Part shown: positions 7,441-20,750 of the stretch, piece by piece | Layout of the letters: every line of letters begins with the position of its first letter | Position numbering within the stretch: position 1 is the first letter of the stretch | NCBI GenBank assembly: GCA_031409335.1 | Contig: JANNWY010000108.1 | Coordinates: forward strand, 1 to 64,000 | DNA length: 64,000 nt | Direction of reading: 5' to 3' | DNA from: Chthoniobacteraceae bacterium | Lineage (GTDB): Bacteria; Verrucomicrobiota; Verrucomicrobiia; Chthoniobacterales; Chthoniobacteraceae | The notes under the pieces: model-generated | Told to the model about the DNA's origin: nothing | Seen by the model: the letters and a program-made list of their open reading frames with translations, nothing else | Database searches by the model: none | Made by a program: the position numbers and the translations under genes

Positions 7441-8625
7441 TCAAAACTGCGTCAGCACGGGCGATGTCCGAAAGGCAACCGCCGCATTTTTCGCGGTCGC
7501 GAGCTGGCTGAGGCGCTGGTCGAGCGCCATCGCGGCCCCGCGGGCAGCGCGACCGAGTTCCGTTTCACGTCCGAGATTTTCCGCGAGCCGGTTGAGCACG
7601 CTGACGGCTTCGGGACGCTGCGTTTCGGCGAGCGCCTGCAGGGCGGAGAGCCGGAAGACGGAATTCGTCTTCGTCTCGAGCGCCCATTTCGGCAACATTT
7701 CCATTGCGATGTCGGGGTAAAAGCGGGCGATGCCGTAGAGCGCGTAGTGGCGCGTGGCGGGTTCGCCGGAGAGCAGTTCGGTCTTCCAGTAGCCCCACTC
7801 GTTGTCCCCTGAAATGCCGTAGTAGCGCATCGCGGCGGGGCGGCAGAGCGGCTCGATCATCGCTTCGATGCGGAGCTGCGGATCGAGCGTCATGGCGACG
7901 CCGGAATCCTTCACGCCCAGCTCGCGGAGCGCGGCGAGCGCGGTGATGATGTCGTATGTATCCACGCGGAAGGCATCGGTGTTGAAGCGGCTCTCCAGTT
8001 CGCTCGTGCCCGAGCTGAATCTCGCGACGCTGCTGAGCGGCAGGTTTTCATTCAGCGCGAGGATCGCGGTCTGGATCGCGCCGGGTGAAAGTTCGAGGTG
8101 ATCCTGCGCATAAGTCAGGAGCAGCTCGACGCGCGGGACGTGGTTGTAAGTGATGACGTATTGGGCGTTGCCGACGCTGTTGCCGGAGCGGGTCGCGGCG
8201 GTTTGGAAAGTGGCCTGGGCGGTTTTGCCGGGTTCGATTTCGACTTCGGTCGGGCGCGTCACGACGACCGCGTTGCGTCCGGATTCAAAAACGAGCCCCA
8301 CCTCCGCCCGGGCCTGGAGCGTCACGTTTCCGGTGTTGGAAAGGGTGGCGCGCATGGCTTCGCGACCGTTGCCGTTGAATTCGGCCTTGATCCGGCCCTG
8401 CTCAATGGCGGCCTGGAGATCGACCGGCTCGGCAGGCGCGGAAACCACGGGCGCGGGCGCGGTGGAATCATGCGAACCGAGGGCGGAAACGGCGGCCAGT
8501 GCGACGATCGCGGCCTGGGCCATCGAGGGCGATTGGAGCGCAGGCTGCCTCGACTGCGGCCAGAGCCAATAGCCGCCGGCTGCGATCACCGGCGTGAGAA
8601 CGACTGCGAGTGCTTTTGCATTCAT
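7441..8625 (-). CDS. Membrane-anchored hypothetical protein with C-terminal HEAT-like helices
   Basis: N-terminal hydrophobic anchor; RHYALYGIAR, RLSALQALAE. Confidence 0.75.
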   Translation of the reverse strand: MNAKALAVVLTPVIAAGGYWLWPQSRQPALQSPSMAQAAIVALAAVSALGSHDSTAPAPVVSAPAEPVDLQAAIEQGRIKAEFNGNGREAMRATLSNTGNVTLQARAEVGLVFESGRNAVVVTRPTEVEIEPGKTAQATFQTAATRSGNSVGNAQYVITYNHVPRVELLLTYAQDHLELSPGAIQTAILALNENLPLSSVARFSSGTSELESRFNTDAFRVDTYDIITALAALRELGVKDSGVAMTLDPQLRIEAMIEPLCRPAAMRYYGISGDNEWGYWKTELLSGEPATRHYALYGIARFYPDIAMEMLPKWALETKTNSVFRLSALQALAETQRPEAVSVLNRLAENLGRETELGRAARGAAMALDQRLSQLATAKNAAVAFRTSPVLTQF

Positions 8626-14963: not shown

Positions 14964-16496
14964 ATGGCCTACGCCTCCTTCTCCGATTTTATCGCCGCGC
15001 TCGAAAGTGCGGGCGAATTGCGCCGCATCTCCGCGCCCGTCGCGACGGAACTGGAGATCACGGAGATCGCCAATCGTGAGATGAAATCGCCCGGCGGCGG
15101 CCAGGCGCTGCTGTTTGAAAAGCCCACGGTCAACGGCGTCGTGTCGCCCTTTCCCGTGGCGATCAATACGATGGGATCGCACAAGCGCATGGCGATGAGC
15201 ATGGGTGCGAATTCGGTGGATGAAGTCGCCGCCGAACTCGGCGCGTTGATGAAGGCGAAGCCGCCGACGGGGTTCAAGGAAGCCATCAAGCTGCTGTCGC
15301 TCGCGATGGATTTGCGCTTCGCAAAGCCGAAGACGGTGAAGGATGGCGCGTGCAAGGAAGTGGTGCATCTGCTCGAAGGCCCGAAGTCAAAGATCGAAAG
15401 CTGGCCTGCCGCACCCGATGTGAATGCACTTTCGACCTTCGACCCCCGGCCTTCGACCCTCCTCAATCTCCCCATCCTGAAATGCTGGCCGCTCGACGGC
15501 GGGCGTTTCATCACGCTGCCATGCGTGGTGACGCGCGACCCGGATACAGGCGAGCGCAATCTTGGCATGTACCGCATCCAGATTTACGACGAACGCACAA
15601 CGGGAATGCACTGGCAGCTCCAGAAAGTCGCCGCGCGTCACGGTCGTCGTTACTACGAAAAGGGCGAAAGGATGCCGGTTGCGATTTTCATCGGGGGCGA
15701 TCCGATGTTCCCATTCGCGGCCACCGCCCCGCTGCCTGATGGCTTGGACGAGTTTCTACTGGCGGGTTACTTGAGAAAGAAGTCGGTGGAGTTAGTAAAG
15801 TGCGAGACCAACGATCTCGAAGTTCCGGCTAACTCAGACATTGTCATTGAAGGCTACGTGGACCCGACCGAGCCACTCCGCGATGAAGGCCCGTTCGGTG
15901 ACCACACCGGCTACTACACCCTGCCCGAGCCGTATCCCGTCTTCCACGTCACGGCCATCACCCATCGCCGGGAAGCGGTGTATCCGGCAACAATCGTTGG
16001 TATTCCACCGATGGAGGATTTCTACATCGGTGGAGCCAGCGTGAAGCTGTTCCTGCCCATCTTCAAAATGAACTTTCCTGAGATCGTGGAAATCGCGCTG
16101 CCAGCGGAGGGTGTGTTTCACAATCTGGTCTTCGTGAGCATCAAAAAGACATACCCGATGCAGGCTTACAAAATCATGCATGGCCTGTGGGGCATGGGTC
16201 AGATGATGTTCAGCAAATACATCGTGGTGGTGGACGCCGACGTGGACGTTCACAATACCAGCGAAGTCCTTTTCCACCTCTGTGCCAACACTGACCCGCA
16301 GCGTGACAGCCTCTTCACCAAAGGACCGTCCGACGTGCTCGATCACGCCACCAGCGAAATCGCCAGCGGCAGCAAACTCGGCATCGACGCGACGAAGAAA
16401 CTCCCCGGCGAAGGCTTCAAACGCCCCTGGCCGCCGCTCATCAAAATGGATGCGGCGGTGAAGGCGAAGGTGGAAATGCTTTTGAACCAGAAGTGA
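14964..16496 (+). CDS. ubiD: UbiD-family decarboxylase (menaquinone/futalosine-pathway type)
   Basis: NLGMYR, EGPFGDHTGYY, DVLDHA, KLGIDAT. Confidence 0.92.
   Translation: MAYASFSDFIAALESAGELRRISAPVATELEITEIANREMKSPGGGQALLFEKPTVNGVVSPFPVAINTMGSHKRMAMSMGANSVDEVAAELGALMKAKPPTGFKEAIKLLSLAMDLRFAKPKTVKDGACKEVVHLLEGPKSKIESWPAAPDVNALSTFDPRPSTLLNLPILKCWPLDGGRFITLPCVVTRDPDTGERNLGMYRIQIYDERTTGMHWQLQKVAARHGRRYYEKGERMPVAIFIGGDPMFPFAATAPLPDGLDEFLLAGYLRKKSVELVKCETNDLEVPANSDIVIEGYVDPTEPLRDEGPFGDHTGYYTLPEPYPVFHVTAITHRREAVYPATIVGIPPMEDFYIGGASVKLFLPIFKMNFPEIVEIALPAEGVFHNLVFVSIKKTYPMQAYKIMHGLWGMGQMMFSKYIVVVDADVDVHNTSEVLFHLCANTDPQRDSLFTKGPSDVLDHATSEIASGSKLGIDATKKLPGEGFKRPWPPLIKMDAAVKAKVEMLLNQK
15373..15456. repeat. 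Heptameric inverted-repeat insert, in frame within ubiD
   Basis: TCGAAGGCCCGAAGTCAAAGATCGAAAG ... CTTTCGACCTTCGACCCCCGGCCTTCGA; 84 bp. Confidence 0.65.
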
Positions 16497-16520
16497 ACCA
16501 TTTATCGACCGCGACAAATT

Positions 16521-18200
16521 ATGACTCCACGCAAAACAAGCATTGGCGGATTGCTCGGCGAATACGAACGACGGCAAATCAAATTGCCCGAATTTCAGCG
16601 CTCATACAGTTGGGAAAAGGCACAGGTTGCCAAATTTTGGGAAGACCTCGGCGCATTCCACGAGCGCTACGACAAAAGTCCGGTCGATGCTTCCTATTTT
16701 CTTGGGCCAATCGTTGTCATCGAATCCAAGACCGACATTACGGTTTTGGACGGTCAACAGCGGCTCGCAACAGCCACGATTCTTCTAGCCGTTTTACGCA
16801 ATCTCTCGCGCGAACTCCACGCAGCCTGCCCATTTCAGGACCTTGACTATTTTGCGCGCGACATGCAGCGGGAGCTTATCGAGAAAAAGGACACGACACC
16901 TCGATCATATTCGCTAACGCTCAGTGAATTGGACGAGCCGTATTTCCTCCAGACCATCAAGTCCGACCCACCCACGTTCGCGAAGCCCGCTCTTCGTTCT
17001 CACCAGTTGATGAAGGCTGCTTACGACTTTTTCCTTGAAGAGGTGCGGCTTGCCATTCAGAGCAAGCCGCCGCAGGCGCAAGTGCAGGAACTAAAATCTT
17101 TCCGAGAAGCTTTAACTAAAGGCATGGCATTGGTCGCAATCGTCGTCGAAGACGAGGAGGATGCGTATGATATCTTTGAAGCGTTGAATGACCGCGGGCT
17201 TCGTCTTTCCGTTCCTGACTTGGTAGTCAATCTCCTACTGAAGCGATGCCCAGATGCTCCAACTAGAAAAACGGTGCGGCAGACATGGAACGGAATGATT
17301 CAGCAAATGGGACGTAGGGATGTTTCGCGGTTCTTACGGCATTTCTGGCTGTCCCAATTCGGAGACCTGAAAGCAAAAGGTCTCTATTCCGAAATAAAAA
17401 GCCATCTCACGGCAAAGAAGATGACGAGCGTTGAGTTCGCTCAATCATGTGCGGAGGCGTGCGAAGATTACCTTCGGCTTTTGGACGTGGACAAATCTTT
17501 GCCCAAGGATGCCCAACGAGATGTGGAAGGTTTGGTCCGCTGTCTGAGCGTTCAGAATAGCTTGCCCTTATTGCTCTCGGCACATCAATGCCTGAACGAT
17601 TCCGATTTCACCAAGCTCGTGAAATCAGCCGCGTCTCTCTACGTTCGGCATACACTCATCGGAAACCAAAATCCCCTCGAACTGGAAACTGTGTTCTACG
17701 ATTCGGCTCGCGAACTGCGGGCACAGACGGTGTCGAAGGTTTCTAGTGGCAAAGCGTTGAAAGCTGTGAAAACAAAGCTCTCGAAGTTGAATCCGAGCGA
17801 TGCGCTGGTCGAGCAACAGTTTGAAAAACTCCTGCTATCAAGGTCCGAAGCAACTTGGTTCATGGTCCAACTAGCCAACGCACAACAAAGCAAGACCAAG
17901 GAAATCGGCATGGACAAAGCCAACGTCGAACACGTCTTTCCACAGAACGCCGGTAAGGAATGGCCGAATCGCGCTGCGCTTGAACCATTTATCTGGCATG
18001 TGGGCAATCTCACCATTCTCGGCAAGCGGATAAACACCAAGGCGCAGAACAAGTCGTTTCCAGACAAGTGCAAGGACCACTACAGCAAATCTGAAATTGC
18101 GATGACCAAAGACTTGCTCAAGGAGACAACGTGGGACGAAGGGGTCATACAAAAGCGCGCCAAGGCCATCGCGAAGATTGCCATTCAGACTTGGAAATGA
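16521..18200 (+). CDS. DUF262-DUF1524 (GmrSD-like) restriction/defence protein
   Basis: LPEFQRSYSW, LDGQQR, IFEALNDRG, VEHVFPQ, GNLTIL...N (HNH-like). Confidence 0.88.
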   Translation: MTPRKTSIGGLLGEYERRQIKLPEFQRSYSWEKAQVAKFWEDLGAFHERYDKSPVDASYFLGPIVVIESKTDITVLDGQQRLATATILLAVLRNLSRELHAACPFQDLDYFARDMQRELIEKKDTTPRSYSLTLSELDEPYFLQTIKSDPPTFAKPALRSHQLMKAAYDFFLEEVRLAIQSKPPQAQVQELKSFREALTKGMALVAIVVEDEEDAYDIFEALNDRGLRLSVPDLVVNLLLKRCPDAPTRKTVRQTWNGMIQQMGRRDVSRFLRHFWLSQFGDLKAKGLYSEIKSHLTAKKMTSVEFAQSCAEACEDYLRLLDVDKSLPKDAQRDVEGLVRCLSVQNSLPLLLSAHQCLNDSDFTKLVKSAASLYVRHTLIGNQNPLELETVFYDSARELRAQTVSKVSSGKALKAVKTKLSKLNPSDALVEQQFEKLLLSRSEATWFMVQLANAQQSKTKEIGMDKANVEHVFPQNAGKEWPNRAALEPFIWHVGNLTILGKRINTKAQNKSFPDKCKDHYSKSEIAMTKDLLKETTWDEGVIQKRAKAIAKIAIQTWK

Positions 18201-18252
18201 CCCGTCAGTTCCAACGCGGTTGCAACCCATCCATTCCCGCCCGCGCCCATGA

Positions 18253-18284
18253 CAACCTTTTGTTGCATATGCAACAAAAGGTTG
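18253..18284. repeat. Perfect 32-bp palindrome downstream of PaaX-like gene
   Basis: CAACCTTTTGTTGCAT|ATGCAACAAAAGGTTG. Confidence 0.95.
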
Positions 18285-18291
18285 CACAGGA

Positions 18292-19077
18292 CTATTCAGG
18301 TTTGAACGTGCGCAGTTGCCGGCTGGCGTCCCGGAGCACTTCCACCCGCCGCCGCCACGCCTGTTGCCCCAGATAATCCGACGGCAGAATCCGGCCCGGC
18401 AGCAGCGGATCGTTCGTCACCGCCTCCAGCCACGCCTCGCGCTCCGCCGCCGCCCAGCGCAGCAACGCCTTCGCCGTCGCGTCATTCCGCAGTGCGCCGC
18501 CCGGTCGCTCGCCGAGGATTTTCAGATGCCGGGCATAGCGGCGGTTGATGCGCTCGAAGTCCCACGCGCCCGCGACGATTTCCGCGTCGGATTCCCCCGC
18601 GCACGGCCGCGCCTCCAGCAGGAGCAACGATTCCACATTGATCTTCCCGCCGCCGAGAATCTGCCGTTCCTCCGTCAGCGGATCGGGCGTGATCCACACG
18701 CTGTTTTGTACATAGCCGAAGCCTTTGTCGCGCAGGTAGCGTCGCAGCCGTTCGCGCTGGGCATTTTGTCCCTTGGGCACGTCGAAGAGCACCAGCCGCC
18801 ATCGACCGTCCCAAGGCCGCGCCCAGCGTTCCTCCGAATCGCGCCCGCCCAGGACGTGCAAGCGCCCCTGCGCGGAGAGCCGATAGAGCCGGTCATCCGG
18901 GGCAGTGGTGTCGCGCTCCAGGAGTTGTTGTTGCTCCAAGGTGGCGACCTGGCGCAGGAGGCCGTTGCGATAGGCCCAGCTTTCGTAGGAGCCGGTGAGG
19001 TTGCGAAAGGTCGGGCGCACAAGCAGCTCGGCGGACCAGAGCAGGAGGTTCAGGAATTCCTCGGTCTTGGGTTGCAT
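18292..19077 (-). CDS. PaaX-family protein with Cas2-like central domain
   Basis: YRLSAQGR (wHTH wing), WDGRWRLVLFDVP, GFGYVQNSVWITP, AWDFERI, DPLLPGRILP. Confidence 0.88.
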   Translation of the reverse strand: MQPKTEEFLNLLLWSAELLVRPTFRNLTGSYESWAYRNGLLRQVATLEQQQLLERDTTAPDDRLYRLSAQGRLHVLGGRDSEERWARPWDGRWRLVLFDVPKGQNAQRERLRRYLRDKGFGYVQNSVWITPDPLTEERQILGGGKINVESLLLLEARPCAGESDAEIVAGAWDFERINRRYARHLKILGERPGGALRNDATAKALLRWAAAEREAWLEAVTNDPLLPGRILPSDYLGQQAWRRRVEVLRDASRQLRTFKPE

Positions 19078-19114
19078 GGCGGGAGGATTGTCGAACGGCT
19101 GCGAAAAGCCAACG

Positions 19115-19146
19115 CAACCTTTTGTTGCATATGCGACAAAAGGTTG
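19115..19146. repeat. 32-bp palindrome (1 mismatch) upstream of PaaX-like gene
   Basis: CAACCTTTTGTTGCAT|ATGCGACAAAAGGTTG. Confidence 0.95.
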
Positions 19147-19454
19147 TCGAAAGCTTAATCCCTTTCCGCCATTTGCATTCGCCTCGTCTTCTCCGCCAAA
19201 GACCGCCGGGCGCTTCGGGTGTGCTTAAAAGTGGAACCAGCGTATGGAGGCAGCCAGATAGCTCAGGCAGCCCCGACATGAATCCCACCCACACACGCCA
19301 CGCCAAACTTCCCAAGAGCGCGCGTTCTCTTGGGAGAGGCGCTCCGCGCGCAGGTCGATCATGCGGGGGACCGCGTGAGCTACTTGCTTCCATCCACTCG
19401 TTCCACTTTCAATTACCGTCGGGCACCCCAGCGCGAGCGACAAACCGACGCGCC

Positions 19455-19543
19455 CGCGACGAAGAAACTCCCCGGCGAAGGTTTCAAACACTCGTAGCCA
19501 CCGCTGATCAAGATGGATGCCGCAGTGAAGGCGAAAGTGGAAA
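19455..19543 (+). pseudogene. Displaced, decaying copy of ubiD 3' end
   Basis: ATKKLPGEGFKHS*PPLIKMDAAVKAKVE versus ATKKLPGEGFKRPWPPLIKMDAAVKAKVE. Confidence 0.9.
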
Positions 19544-19673
19544 GAAGGTGGAAAAAGTGCCGTGTCACCGGGGCTTCCTGCGAATCAACCAACCCCGCGT
19601 CCTGCTTTTCAAACGCTGGCGCATTGCCTGAAATAGGAGCACCTGATTCAGTCCGCCAAAACCCTTTTGAACA

Positions 19674-20750
19674 ATGAGCAGGAAATGGAAAATCGCAGGC
19701 ATCAACTTCGACCACATGCACATGGGCGACCTGTTGCGCAATGCGGCCGAGCACCCGGAAGTCGAGATCGCGGGCATTTGCGATGAGAAGCGGGAGCGCA
19801 TGGAGATTTCCGTGCGCAATTTTAACATCCCGCGCGACCGCGTTTTCACGGACTACCGCGAGTGCATGGAAAAGGCGAAGCCCGATCTGGTGATCCTCTG
19901 CCCTGCGACGGCGGAGCACGGACTGTGGACGAAGCGCATCGCGGAGTACGGCGTTCACATCATGGTCGAGAAGCCATTCGCCGCGACGCTGGTTGAGGCG
20001 GACGAGATGATCGCGGCGCAGCAGGCGACAGGGAAATTGCTCGCGATCAACTGGCCGACGCGCTGGTCTGCCTGCAACATTACGGCCAAACGAATGATCA
20101 ATGAAGGGGTGATTGGCGACGTGTTGAACGTGCATCATTATGGCGGGAATCGCGGGCCGCTTTTTCACGGGGCGGACAAGGCGGTACATTCGCCGACTGC
20201 GGCGGACAAGGCGAAGAGTTGGTTTTACAACAAGGCGCAGGGCGGCGGGTCGCTGCTGGACTACGCGGGATACGGCGCGACGCTCGGGACGTGGTTTCAG
20301 GGCGGGCGTAAACCGCTCGAAGTGACGTGCGTGACCGATGAGCCCGCCGGGCTCGAAGTGGACGAGCACAGCATCACGGTCTGCCGCTACGCGCATGGGC
20401 TGTCGAAGGTCGAGACGCGCTGGGGCACGTTCACCGATCCGTGGGTCACGCAGCCGCAGCCAAAGTGCGGCTTTGTCGTCGCGGGGACGAAGGGGACGAT
20501 TTCGGCATACGATTACGCGACGCGTTTGCGTGTCCAGACCACGGATGTGCCAGTGCGGGCAAAGGTGCCGGTGGACGAAGTGCCCGCCCCGTTCCACAAC
20601 CCGATCCAATATCTGATCCACTGTCTGGAAACGGAAACGCCGGTGACCGGTCCGCTCGCGCCCAACATCGCGCGGATCGGGCAGCAGATTGTGGACAGCG
20701 CAGTGCTCAGCGCGCGTGAGAAGCGAACGGTGGCTTTGGTGGAAAGCTGA
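19674..20750 (+). CDS. Gfo/Idh/MocA oxidoreductase
   Basis: MVEKPFA, GGGSLLDYAGY. Confidence 0.88.
   Translation: MSRKWKIAGINFDHMHMGDLLRNAAEHPEVEIAGICDEKRERMEISVRNFNIPRDRVFTDYRECMEKAKPDLVILCPATAEHGLWTKRIAEYGVHIMVEKPFAATLVEADEMIAAQQATGKLLAINWPTRWSACNITAKRMINEGVIGDVLNVHHYGGNRGPLFHGADKAVHSPTAADKAKSWFYNKAQGGGSLLDYAGYGATLGTWFQGGRKPLEVTCVTDEPAGLEVDEHSITVCRYAHGLSKVETRWGTFTDPWVTQPQPKCGFVVAGTKGTISAYDYATRLRVQTTDVPVRAKVPVDEVPAPFHNPIQYLIHCLETETPVTGPLAPNIARIGQQIVDSAVLSAREKRTVALVES

Follow-up and report, generated by a model that had tools for sequence, protein, structure and literature searches.

Why should a bacterial gene for a PaaX-like protein stand between two nearly identical copies of one long palindrome, one of them just past its stop codon? 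The question is raised by a locus in the window, by which is meant the whole 64,000-nt stretch analysed here (positions 1 to 64,000 of contig JANNWY010000108.1, assembly GCA_031409335.1, from a Chthoniobacteraceae bacterium whose genome is denoted G000). The answer proposed, to which we attach a probability of about one half, is that the gene and its palindromes, together called the cassette, are partners in the sense in which repetitive extragenic palindromic (REP) elements are partners of the REP-associated tyrosine transposases (RAYTs), with a protein that is not of the HUH type: the PaaX-fold protein would bind the palindromes as a dimer, autoregulate, and drive their spread or retention. 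Comparison of sequences shows that the twin sites are conserved, that the two copies match at each locus, that further copies dispersed through the genome are tied to the gene, and that these dispersed copies are insertions; on the same footing the cassette appears to be a self-contained unit, a PaaX-fold gene between two lineage-specific palindromes of 32-34 bp.

The gene and its twin palindromes

The cassette gene, as called among the open reading frames (ORFs) of the window, occupies 18292-19077 on the minus strand and encodes 261 amino acids. A perfect 32-bp palindrome, CAACCTTTTGTTGCATATGCAACAAAAGGTTG (CAACC...GGTTG), lies at 18253-18284, separated from the stop codon by the 7 bp of 18285-18291, and its inverted partner, a 32-bp copy with one mismatch (A to G at 19135), lies at 19115-19146, separated from the ATG by a 37-bp spacer (19078-19114). 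The initial annotation had described this arrangement, as well as the 35-nt inverted repeat with one mismatch that is obtained when the flanks are included (18251-18285 against 19114-19148, 97% complementary), and both descriptions are confirmed. An origin of the pair by chance or as an artefact was rejected on two grounds: none of 100 dinucleotide shuffles of the window gave two matches to the palindrome at three or fewer mismatches, and in the whole 7.94-Mb genome just four perfect palindromes have no loop and arms of at least 13 bases, two of them being the cassette palindrome sequence. As single-stranded DNA the site is calculated to fold at -15.9 kcal/mol (z = -6.35), and a search of Rfam over 16300-19800 returned only a sub-threshold match of the bare hairpin to a miRNA family. 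Another perfect 32-bp palindrome of the same genome, GTCGATTTATGTGGAGCTCCACATAAATCGAC, is found at C9:21338-21369.

The spacer, read on the minus strand, is predicted to hold the promoter. A -35-like TTGGCT falls immediately within the edge of the palindrome, and from a -10-like box placed about 7 nt ahead of the ATG a leaderless mRNA would result; the 37 bp contain no Shine-Dalgarno sequence. The boxes represent our own interpretation of 43 aligned upstream regions.

The flanking palindromes can be followed through the family. A homolog scan with one genome per species yielded 80 loci, all from metagenome-assembled genomes (MAGs) of Verrucomicrobiota type; 44 genes are full-length (window included), and 42 have enough flanking sequence to be judged. 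A recognisable palindrome stands on both sides in at least 39 of these 42 close homolog loci, or in 25 of the 42 when a strict score is demanded on both sides. Two loci (L029, L051) have a degenerate second copy that is recovered by a mismatch search, and L054 has no upstream copy. The inner edge of the upstream palindrome is 35-40 bp from the ATG in 38 of the 42 loci, and in most of them the downstream palindrome follows 0-11 bp past the stop. Of 29 more distant loci (35-55% identity), twins flank the gene in 12, a single copy is present in 6, and the remaining 11 have no palindrome. The expectation that homologs would carry flanking palindromes at fixed positions was thus borne out by the close homologs and by 12 of the 29 distant ones. 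The MAG records of eight loci (L014, L015, L018, L024, L031, L056, L063 and L068), which carry this cassette of the Verrucomicrobia type, are titled Bifidobacterium or Bifidobacteriaceae; the assemblies have probably been mislabelled. The distant loci come from a profile search that covered 401 genomes of the phylum and showed a patchy distribution, with the family present in 21 genomes, some of which have 2-3 copies or in-frame stops; one genome has four cassette-gene paralogs.

The palindromes of distant lineages are unrelated to one another (GAGCAAAAAATGTCTCAGCTGAGAC... as against TCACACATAAACTCACGATCGTGAG..., for example), and at each locus both copies match; their centres are CAGCTG, CGATCG, CGTACG or CGGCCG, and their lengths range from 26 to 48 bp. 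For close homologs the difference is modest, with a mean palindrome identity of 27.3 of 34 within loci and 23.1 of 34 between them; the strong signal for locus-matched, lineage-specific palindromes comes from the distant homologs. Co-variation between palindrome and protein, which the initial annotation had raised, is found for the whole site with respect to lineage and could not be assigned to individual residues of the predicted winged helix-turn-helix (wHTH): close homologs whose outer palindrome arms differ have an identical recognition-helix sequence. A parS-like reading of the palindrome centre (TGTTGCATATGCAACA compared with the parS consensus) was dropped, the sites being 32-48 bp long, lineage-specific and tied to the cassette gene. 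Two genomes of different families, G284 (locus L140) and G322 (L154), have an identical 34-bp palindrome around their cassette genes, which hints at transfer of the cassette between those families. In L114 (G043:C19:14272) a copy of the palindrome meets the coding sequence of the cassette near codon 22, and the promoter is missing together with the first codons; the arrangement looks like an adjacent deletion at an element end.

The protein itself is a distant PaaX-fold protein and not the paa repressor, an assignment which rests on its Pfam and NCBIfam scores together with its placement by AlphaFold2 and Foldseek. Pfam PaaX_M (PF20803) matches it at 3.9e-18 (65.8 bits against a cutoff of 24); PaaX_C scores 20.1 bits against a cutoff of 22, which is passed by 6 of 8 family relatives (22.2-32 bits), and PF07848, the PaaX N-terminal family, gives no match. 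NCBIfam TIGR02277, the equivalog model of the paa operon repressor, scores 62.4 bits, below its cutoff of 264.55. The AlphaFold2 model, built from an alignment of 58 sequences (pLDDT 88.1, pTM 0.80), has a helical N-terminus (helices at 3-49, then a beta hairpin at 53-67) that may correspond to a winged helix, a central Cas2-like domain of ferredoxin fold that contains Asp99, and a helical C-terminal domain that contains Tyr235. Foldseek matches this model to E. coli PaaX (8a39, 3.4e-8), Rv0674 (3kfw, 3.8e-8) and 3l09 (7e-3), the whole-chain matches to the first two spanning 220-245 columns, and ranks 7-49 are Cas2 and VapD chains that match the middle domain with probabilities of about 0.9-1.0. 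The corresponding phmmer values are 7.8e-5 for 3kfw and 6.5e-3 for 8a39. No match to the window protein was found in PHROGs, and a check for fusion partners showed no extra Pfam domain in the longer family members.

Thirteen residues (W85, W89, R108, G121, Q124, W128, W172, D223, P224, L226, P227, Y235 and G237) are invariant in the 58 family members, which share 35-82% identity, and Asp99 and S126 are each kept in at least 90% of them. Both motifs to which attention had been drawn, LVLFDVP, with Asp99 at the end of strand 1, and QNSVW, with the invariant Q124 and W128, are present. When E. coli PaaX and Rv0674 are aligned pairwise with the protein, neither shows an Asp at position 99, and both have Trp at position 235. 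Asp99 would align with the catalytic Asp of Cas2, to judge from profile matches that start at residue 93 against profile position 2. PADLOC reports six weak matches to Cas2 models (E 2.6e-5 to 8e-3), which are limited to residues 93-137.

The extent of the cassette is visible in blastn comparisons with other loci: in nearly all full-length ones homology runs no further than 19146-19149, where the upstream palindrome has its outer edge, and in many it stops at 18251-18253 on the downstream side. Elsewhere the cassette is found between unrelated housekeeping genes (YidC, RsgA, GlmS/GlmM, ParC/ParE, ThrRS, MetH, transketolase and others), and when 735 flanking ORFs were grouped into 510 clusters, the only recurrent ones were the cassette gene and UbiD. 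No paa enzyme family is named among 199 neighbour ORFs of homolog loci, where one PaaK-sized AMP-binding protein occurs in L084, and none is present among the four flanking genes tested in the window (UbiD, GmrSD, GFO/IDH/MocA oxidoreductase). The absence of paa genes from the window locus thus holds for the genes tested, and the homologs, as judged from the 199 ORFs, lie outside paa operons and not at one fixed locus.

Dispersed copies of the palindrome

Extra copies elsewhere in the genome, which the initial annotation had suggested might exist, are a regular feature. Each of the 15 gene-bearing genomes searched has its own palindrome in 2-15 copies, at least three in 14 of the 15, and reversed-pattern controls gave 0 matches in every search. 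The window's genome has 5 copies, two at the gene and three solos (C293:35647, C193:78901 and C170:47617). Ten other gene-bearing genomes have 3, 3, 4, 5, 7, 7, 8, 13, 14 and 15; G284 has 7, G322 has 3, the complete genome G235 has 7, spread round the chromosome, and G332 has 2. The copies go with the gene: in 40 relatives of G000 without an intact gene, a degenerate core motif gave no match in 38 and one unrelated-looking match in each of the other 2. In G008 a gene remnant (residues 197-261) is all that is left of the gene, and it lies beside a decayed palindrome.

Solo palindromes are insertions. Their flanks are unrelated beyond about 34-40 bp, and four solos lie in frame inside genes, namely a TOTE-like helicase (G045), a ResIII gene (G043), a class-I aminoacyl-tRNA synthetase (G044) and RACo (G046). 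The in-frame helicase solo of G045 reads ...HDLQPFVAYATKGCTGG..., and at its site exactly 33 bp are absent from the helicase orthologs of G044 and G042; in G008 the site retains a palindrome in decay. No palindrome is present in the orthologs of the C193 intergenic region in two genomes of the same genus. The idea that empty sites might be found was consequently upheld for one solo, by the 33-bp helicase indel, and not for the whole cassette, for which no clean site was found. The RACo copy is common to three related genomes, and in G049 it has changed symmetrically (GTCGCATATGCGAC to GTCCCACGTGGGAC), so that the peptide is altered and the palindrome kept. A surface loop of the class-I aminoacyl-tRNA synthetase, an essential enzyme, carries in-frame palindromic inserts that vary with the genome (L102, L161-L165): in G044 the insert is the cassette palindrome, whereas GC-rich hairpin repeats occupy the loop in G041, G042, G043 and G045.

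Within one genome the copies look like copies of each other and not like sites that evolved independently. All five G000 copies have the same asymmetric flanks, A...C; the C193 solo (C193:78900-78933) equals the upstream copy at 34 of 34 positions, variant base included, and the C293 solo (C293:35643-35682) is identical to the downstream copy along 40 bp. In G042, 5-6 contigs have asymmetric variants that are identical, and 7-8 copies lie inside a longer inverted-repeat element of about 100 bp; among the 15 palindrome copies of G042 (loci L183-L194) the outer arms are of three types (AACC, AATC and GAAC) in mixed pairs, as if half-sites had been exchanged at the centre. No functional theme unites the neighbours of 18 solo sites, which include an extracytoplasmic function (ECF) sigma factor, an RNase, LipA, an aminoacyl-tRNA synthetase, an oxidase, helicases, EF-P, MtaB/RACo, nth and an SBP. 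Near two of the three solos of G000, at distances of 48 and 81 bp, are copies of a 144-bp repeat that occurs dozens of times in this genome (C193:78711-78853 and C170:47393-47536).

Weighing the explanations

In the mechanism proposed for the REP/RAYT-like partnership, a dimer would use its winged helices to bind each palindrome. Autoregulation would come from the upstream site, adjoining the predicted -35 box, and the downstream site would serve as a second anchor, either as part of a loop or as a roadblock. Solos might arise by the copying of the palindrome alone, or as footprints that are left when the gene is lost from between its two palindromes. Candidate residues for the putative chemistry are the family-specific Asp99, at the Cas2 catalytic position, and the invariant Tyr235.

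A number of points weigh against such a partnership. That the protein binds, cuts, excises, inverts or newly inserts the palindromes is a prediction made from sequence. The window protein matches no Y1_Tnp, DDE or integrase model and shows no known transposase or recombinase motif, and its match to the Cas2 model TIGR01573 (20.6 bits, E 4.1e-4, residues 93-128) falls below the cutoff of 24.5. A sigma-70 consensus scan of the upstream region gave no promoter match, for which reason the promoter part of the mechanism is to be taken as predicted. The clean 33-bp indel is the only one of its kind, and because its flanks are 73% identical, neither a target duplication nor the exact boundary can be read there. 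No readable empty site for the whole cassette was found at the glmS/glmM locus of L028 in 25 relatives, where the flanks are not adjacent. With 2-15 copies the palindromes are much less numerous than typical REP families, and G332 has just the flanking pair. Finally, related genomes retain some of the solos at orthologous positions, and these conserved solos would fit stable selected binding sites as well as they fit old insertions.

The last of these points leads to the alternative that survives best, an ordinary autoregulated factor, which is possible though on balance doubtful. A PaaX-type dimer or tetramer on both palindromes would loop its own gene and serve a small regulon at the solos, without any part in creating the sites. 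E. coli PaaX provides a precedent, as it binds the 39-bp inverted repeat TGATTC(N27)GAATCA and represses its own promoter according to an excerpt of a review (PMC9493321). The PaaX fold and the putative wHTH of the cassette protein, the fixed 37-bp spacing from the upstream site to the ATG, the symmetry that is maintained in solos conserved at orthologous positions, and copy numbers of 3-15, which are regulon-like, all suit a looping autorepressor of this kind. What such a repressor does not account for is that solos are 33-bp insertions, several in frame inside coding genes, that the neighbours of 18 solo sites have no functional theme in common, and that many copies per genome are base-identical over 30-40 bp with common asymmetric variants, unlike independently evolved operators. 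It also gives no reason for a second operator right past the stop in about 40 lineages.

The opposite departure from the REP/RAYT-like partnership is to suppose that the protein itself is a new transposase or site-specific recombinase, of neither the HUH, the DDE, the serine nor the classic tyrosine type, which would recognise the 34-bp palindrome with its winged helix, cut and rejoin DNA through Asp99 and Tyr235, and move both the 0.9-kb cassette and 33-bp mini-elements. This reading is rather unlikely; were it true, the cassette and its solos would be the smallest pair of autonomous and non-autonomous elements known in bacteria.

It is improbable that a tyrosine recombinase of the host moves the module in the style of lox/FRT sites or pdif modules, with 13-bp arms and an 8-bp centre, the gene being a cargo that regulates itself or the recombination. 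The 13+8+13 layout and the length of 34-35 bp do resemble sites of the lox/FRT type, the sites form the exact limits of the module, recombination at a perfect palindrome can take place in either orientation, and the three outer-arm types in mixed pairs in G042 would follow from an exchange of half-sites. A conserved host recombinase would, however, hold the palindromes constant, whereas from lineage to lineage they change together with the cassette protein; a search of 40 related genomes that lack the gene gave no such sites in 38, only one Phage_integrase protein (XerC/D-like) occurs among the 199 neighbour ORFs scanned, and the centre dinucleotide varies (AT, CC/GG, CG) and has no consistent orientation from one copy to the other.

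It is still harder to credit that the palindromes are the REPs of a RAYT-like Y1 transposase, with the PaaX-like gene as bystander or regulator. Y1_Tnp genes adjoin the cassette in 5 of 81 loci (L006, L014, L024, L049 and L065), and in the window a 5' remnant of a Y1 gene (19157-19214) starts 10 bp beyond the upstream palindrome; against this, 76 of the 81 loci have no such gene within the stored flanks, G000 has just three distant Y1 homologs (42-47% identity), none of them on a palindrome-bearing contig, the Y1 genes are flanked by different hairpin repeats of their own, and the cassette palindromes have no GTAG tag. Least credible of all is the reading of the palindromes as RNA or DNA structural elements only (a bidirectional terminator, or hairpins at mRNA ends) whose copies are kept alike by gene conversion, for while the hairpin is strong at -15.9 kcal/mol, the downstream copy lies between convergent genes and REPs are known to act in this way (in the portion of PMC3733652 available), no T-run follows the stem, a terminator scan returned a weak partial site, and the identical copy upstream of the promoter, the lineage-specific matching copies and the in-frame copies are left unexplained.

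Surroundings of the cassette and known systems

The window cassette lies within an accessory island. The last 89 bp or so of ubiD (16388-16476) are repeated at 19455-19543 over 89 bp with 87.6% identity, and this repeat delimits a 3.07-kb island, composed of GmrSD and the cassette, at the 3' end of ubiD. In two sediment runs, contigs in which 16350 is joined to 19471 may represent the island-less form. The contigs of four DNA runs break at the palindromes and continue into several contexts; the cassette was not seen inverted or excised in them, although contigs of this kind cannot show inversion or excision; the region downstream of ubiD is rearranged in genomes of the same genus, with no clean empty site. 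In 35 of 81 loci the 3' side of the cassette has a UbiD gene, or a fragment of the UbiD 3' end, in its vicinity, and the cargo between the two varies: it is GmrSD/HEC-06 in the window, and elsewhere methylases, HNH, PIN, AAA, OLD-type TOPRIM, DUF4062, ankyrin and Y1 transposases. In some loci (e.g. L068, L071, L075, L076, L081 and L082) there are arrays in which fragments from the 3' end of UbiD take turns with fragments from the 3' end of the cassette gene; their cargo is varied, and no integrase was seen.

The left neighbour at 16521-18200 on the plus strand encodes a GmrSD-type enzyme (Pfam GmrSD_N and GmrSD_C), whose best PADLOC match is the candidate defence family HEC-06 (2.3e-106). The link to defence that had been suggested for the cassette is supported by its neighbourhood only, that is, by GmrSD/HEC-06 and the other cargo nearby. 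No CRISPR array is present in 17500-20000 and no Cas1 among the neighbour ORFs scanned. Viral contigs gave no family member and plasmids gave just 4 distant actinobacterial PaaX matches; since no close member was returned, the cassette was not found on the phages and plasmids of those collections.

Other repeats adjoin the cassette. The plus-strand remnant at 19157-19214 (...ICIRLVFSAKDRRAL...) is the 5' part of an IS200-like Y1 transposase gene of RAYT type, intact copies of which, 90-96% identical to one another, adjoin the cassette in L006/G008, L024 and L049, with a partial one in L014. A separate hairpin-repeat family (CAATCCCnnnGGGATTG, CCCAAGGT...ACCTTGGG, CCGCAACGCGGTTGCGG) flanks the Y1 genes on both sides (L024:6880-6990 and 7530-7900; L049:1680-1810), and one degenerate unit of it, which contains GGTTGCAACC, is found in the window at 18205-18230. 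The initial annotation had placed GGTTGCAACC correctly at 18218-18227, and its resemblance to the joined palindrome ends did not stand: because GGTTGCAACC is part of this different hairpin repeat, of the CAACGCGGTTGC type, which in related loci borders Y1-transposase genes, it does not represent joined palindrome ends. An imperfect inverted repeat at 19219-19416 (arms 19225-19252 and 19385-19412) belongs to a dispersed family with copies on C160, C228, C302 and other contigs.

REP-type palindromes are among the commonest bacterial repeats, and to our knowledge they have so far been tied to only one class of protein, the HUH RAYTs. The present family would be a second and unrelated one, found in one phylum, with the same genomic signature: its own flanking palindrome, lineage-specific dispersed repeats, and insertion into genes. 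If the protein acts on the palindromes, a function would be given to a large set of genes mis-annotated as "PaaX" or "Cas2" (1777 matches, 241 clusters at E <=1e-30), a use of the Cas2-like fold outside CRISPR would be demonstrated, and a compact set of orthogonal pairs, each a protein and a 34-bp site, would become available. If the protein only binds, it would still be unusual, a regulator whose sites spread by insertion. No account of such a system was found in the titles and opening lines of abstracts of the literature on PaaX with Cas2-like, on PaaX-like and on Verrucomicrobia palindromic repeats.

Comparison with known systems brings out what is shared and what is particular to the cassette. 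With Cas2 and VapD it shares the middle domain, as judged by the structural matches and by weak Cas2 profile matches that cover strand 1 and helix 1, the Asp included; it differs from Cas2 in that all profile scores are below cutoff, that neither cas1 nor a CRISPR array stands beside the gene, and that the domain is embedded in a predicted DNA-binding protein. In IS200/IS605 elements both ends are hairpins recognised by the protein of the element, and short non-autonomous derivatives, the palindrome-associated transposable elements (PATEs), exist. Rickettsia palindromic elements (RPEs) insert in frame into genes, according to an excerpt of PMC10969869. The cassette departs from both, having no TnpA and a solo unit of about 33-36 bp compared with about 150 bp for the RPEs. 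Modules of the pdif kind and sites of the lox/FRT type also present one gene between two inverted recombination-site-like palindromes of about 28-34 bp; the cassette sites are perfect palindromes, and they change with the cassette protein and not with a host recombinase.

Canonical PaaX, the phenylacetyl-CoA-responsive paa repressor (E. coli W, 8a39), has a three-domain fold of wHTH, Cas2-like middle and helical C-terminal domain, to which the model of the cassette protein, with its putative wHTH, corresponds overall. Its recognition of a long inverted repeat and repression of its own promoter, as given in part of PMC9493321, are also what is proposed for the cassette protein. The two are about 20% identical; the cassette protein is far below the TIGR02277 cutoff, has no paa genes nearby, and is distinguished by Asp99 and Tyr235, by twin flanking sites and by dispersed insertions.

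The closest parallel is provided by REP sequences, REPINs and their RAYTs (REPtrons), in which, as far as the available parts of four papers describe them (PMC3337134, PMC3116915, PMC5581495, PMC3733652), a single-copy gene likewise stands between inverted copies of a palindrome of 20-40 bp, further copies of which are scattered over the same genome, and the repeat is specific to the gene lineage, lies inside genes in some species and is patchy between genomes. REPs have a GTAG (or CGTC) tag at one end of the repeat, they occur inside genes, and at least one large class has no dedicated transposase, as stated in the portion of PMC3733652 available. The cassette protein has the PaaX fold and is not an HUH/Y1 transposase; its palindromes number 2-15 where REPs number tens to hundreds, and are perfect zero-loop 32-48-mers without the GTAG or CGTC tag, their flanks reading (G/T)A-CAACC...GGTTG-T(C/A), or -C in G000. 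With respect to start and stop their placement is exact to the base, and mobilisation by the protein is predicted only. As a description of anatomy, with conserved twins, lineage specificity and dispersed copies, the analogy with REP and RAYT that the initial annotation drew is a good one.

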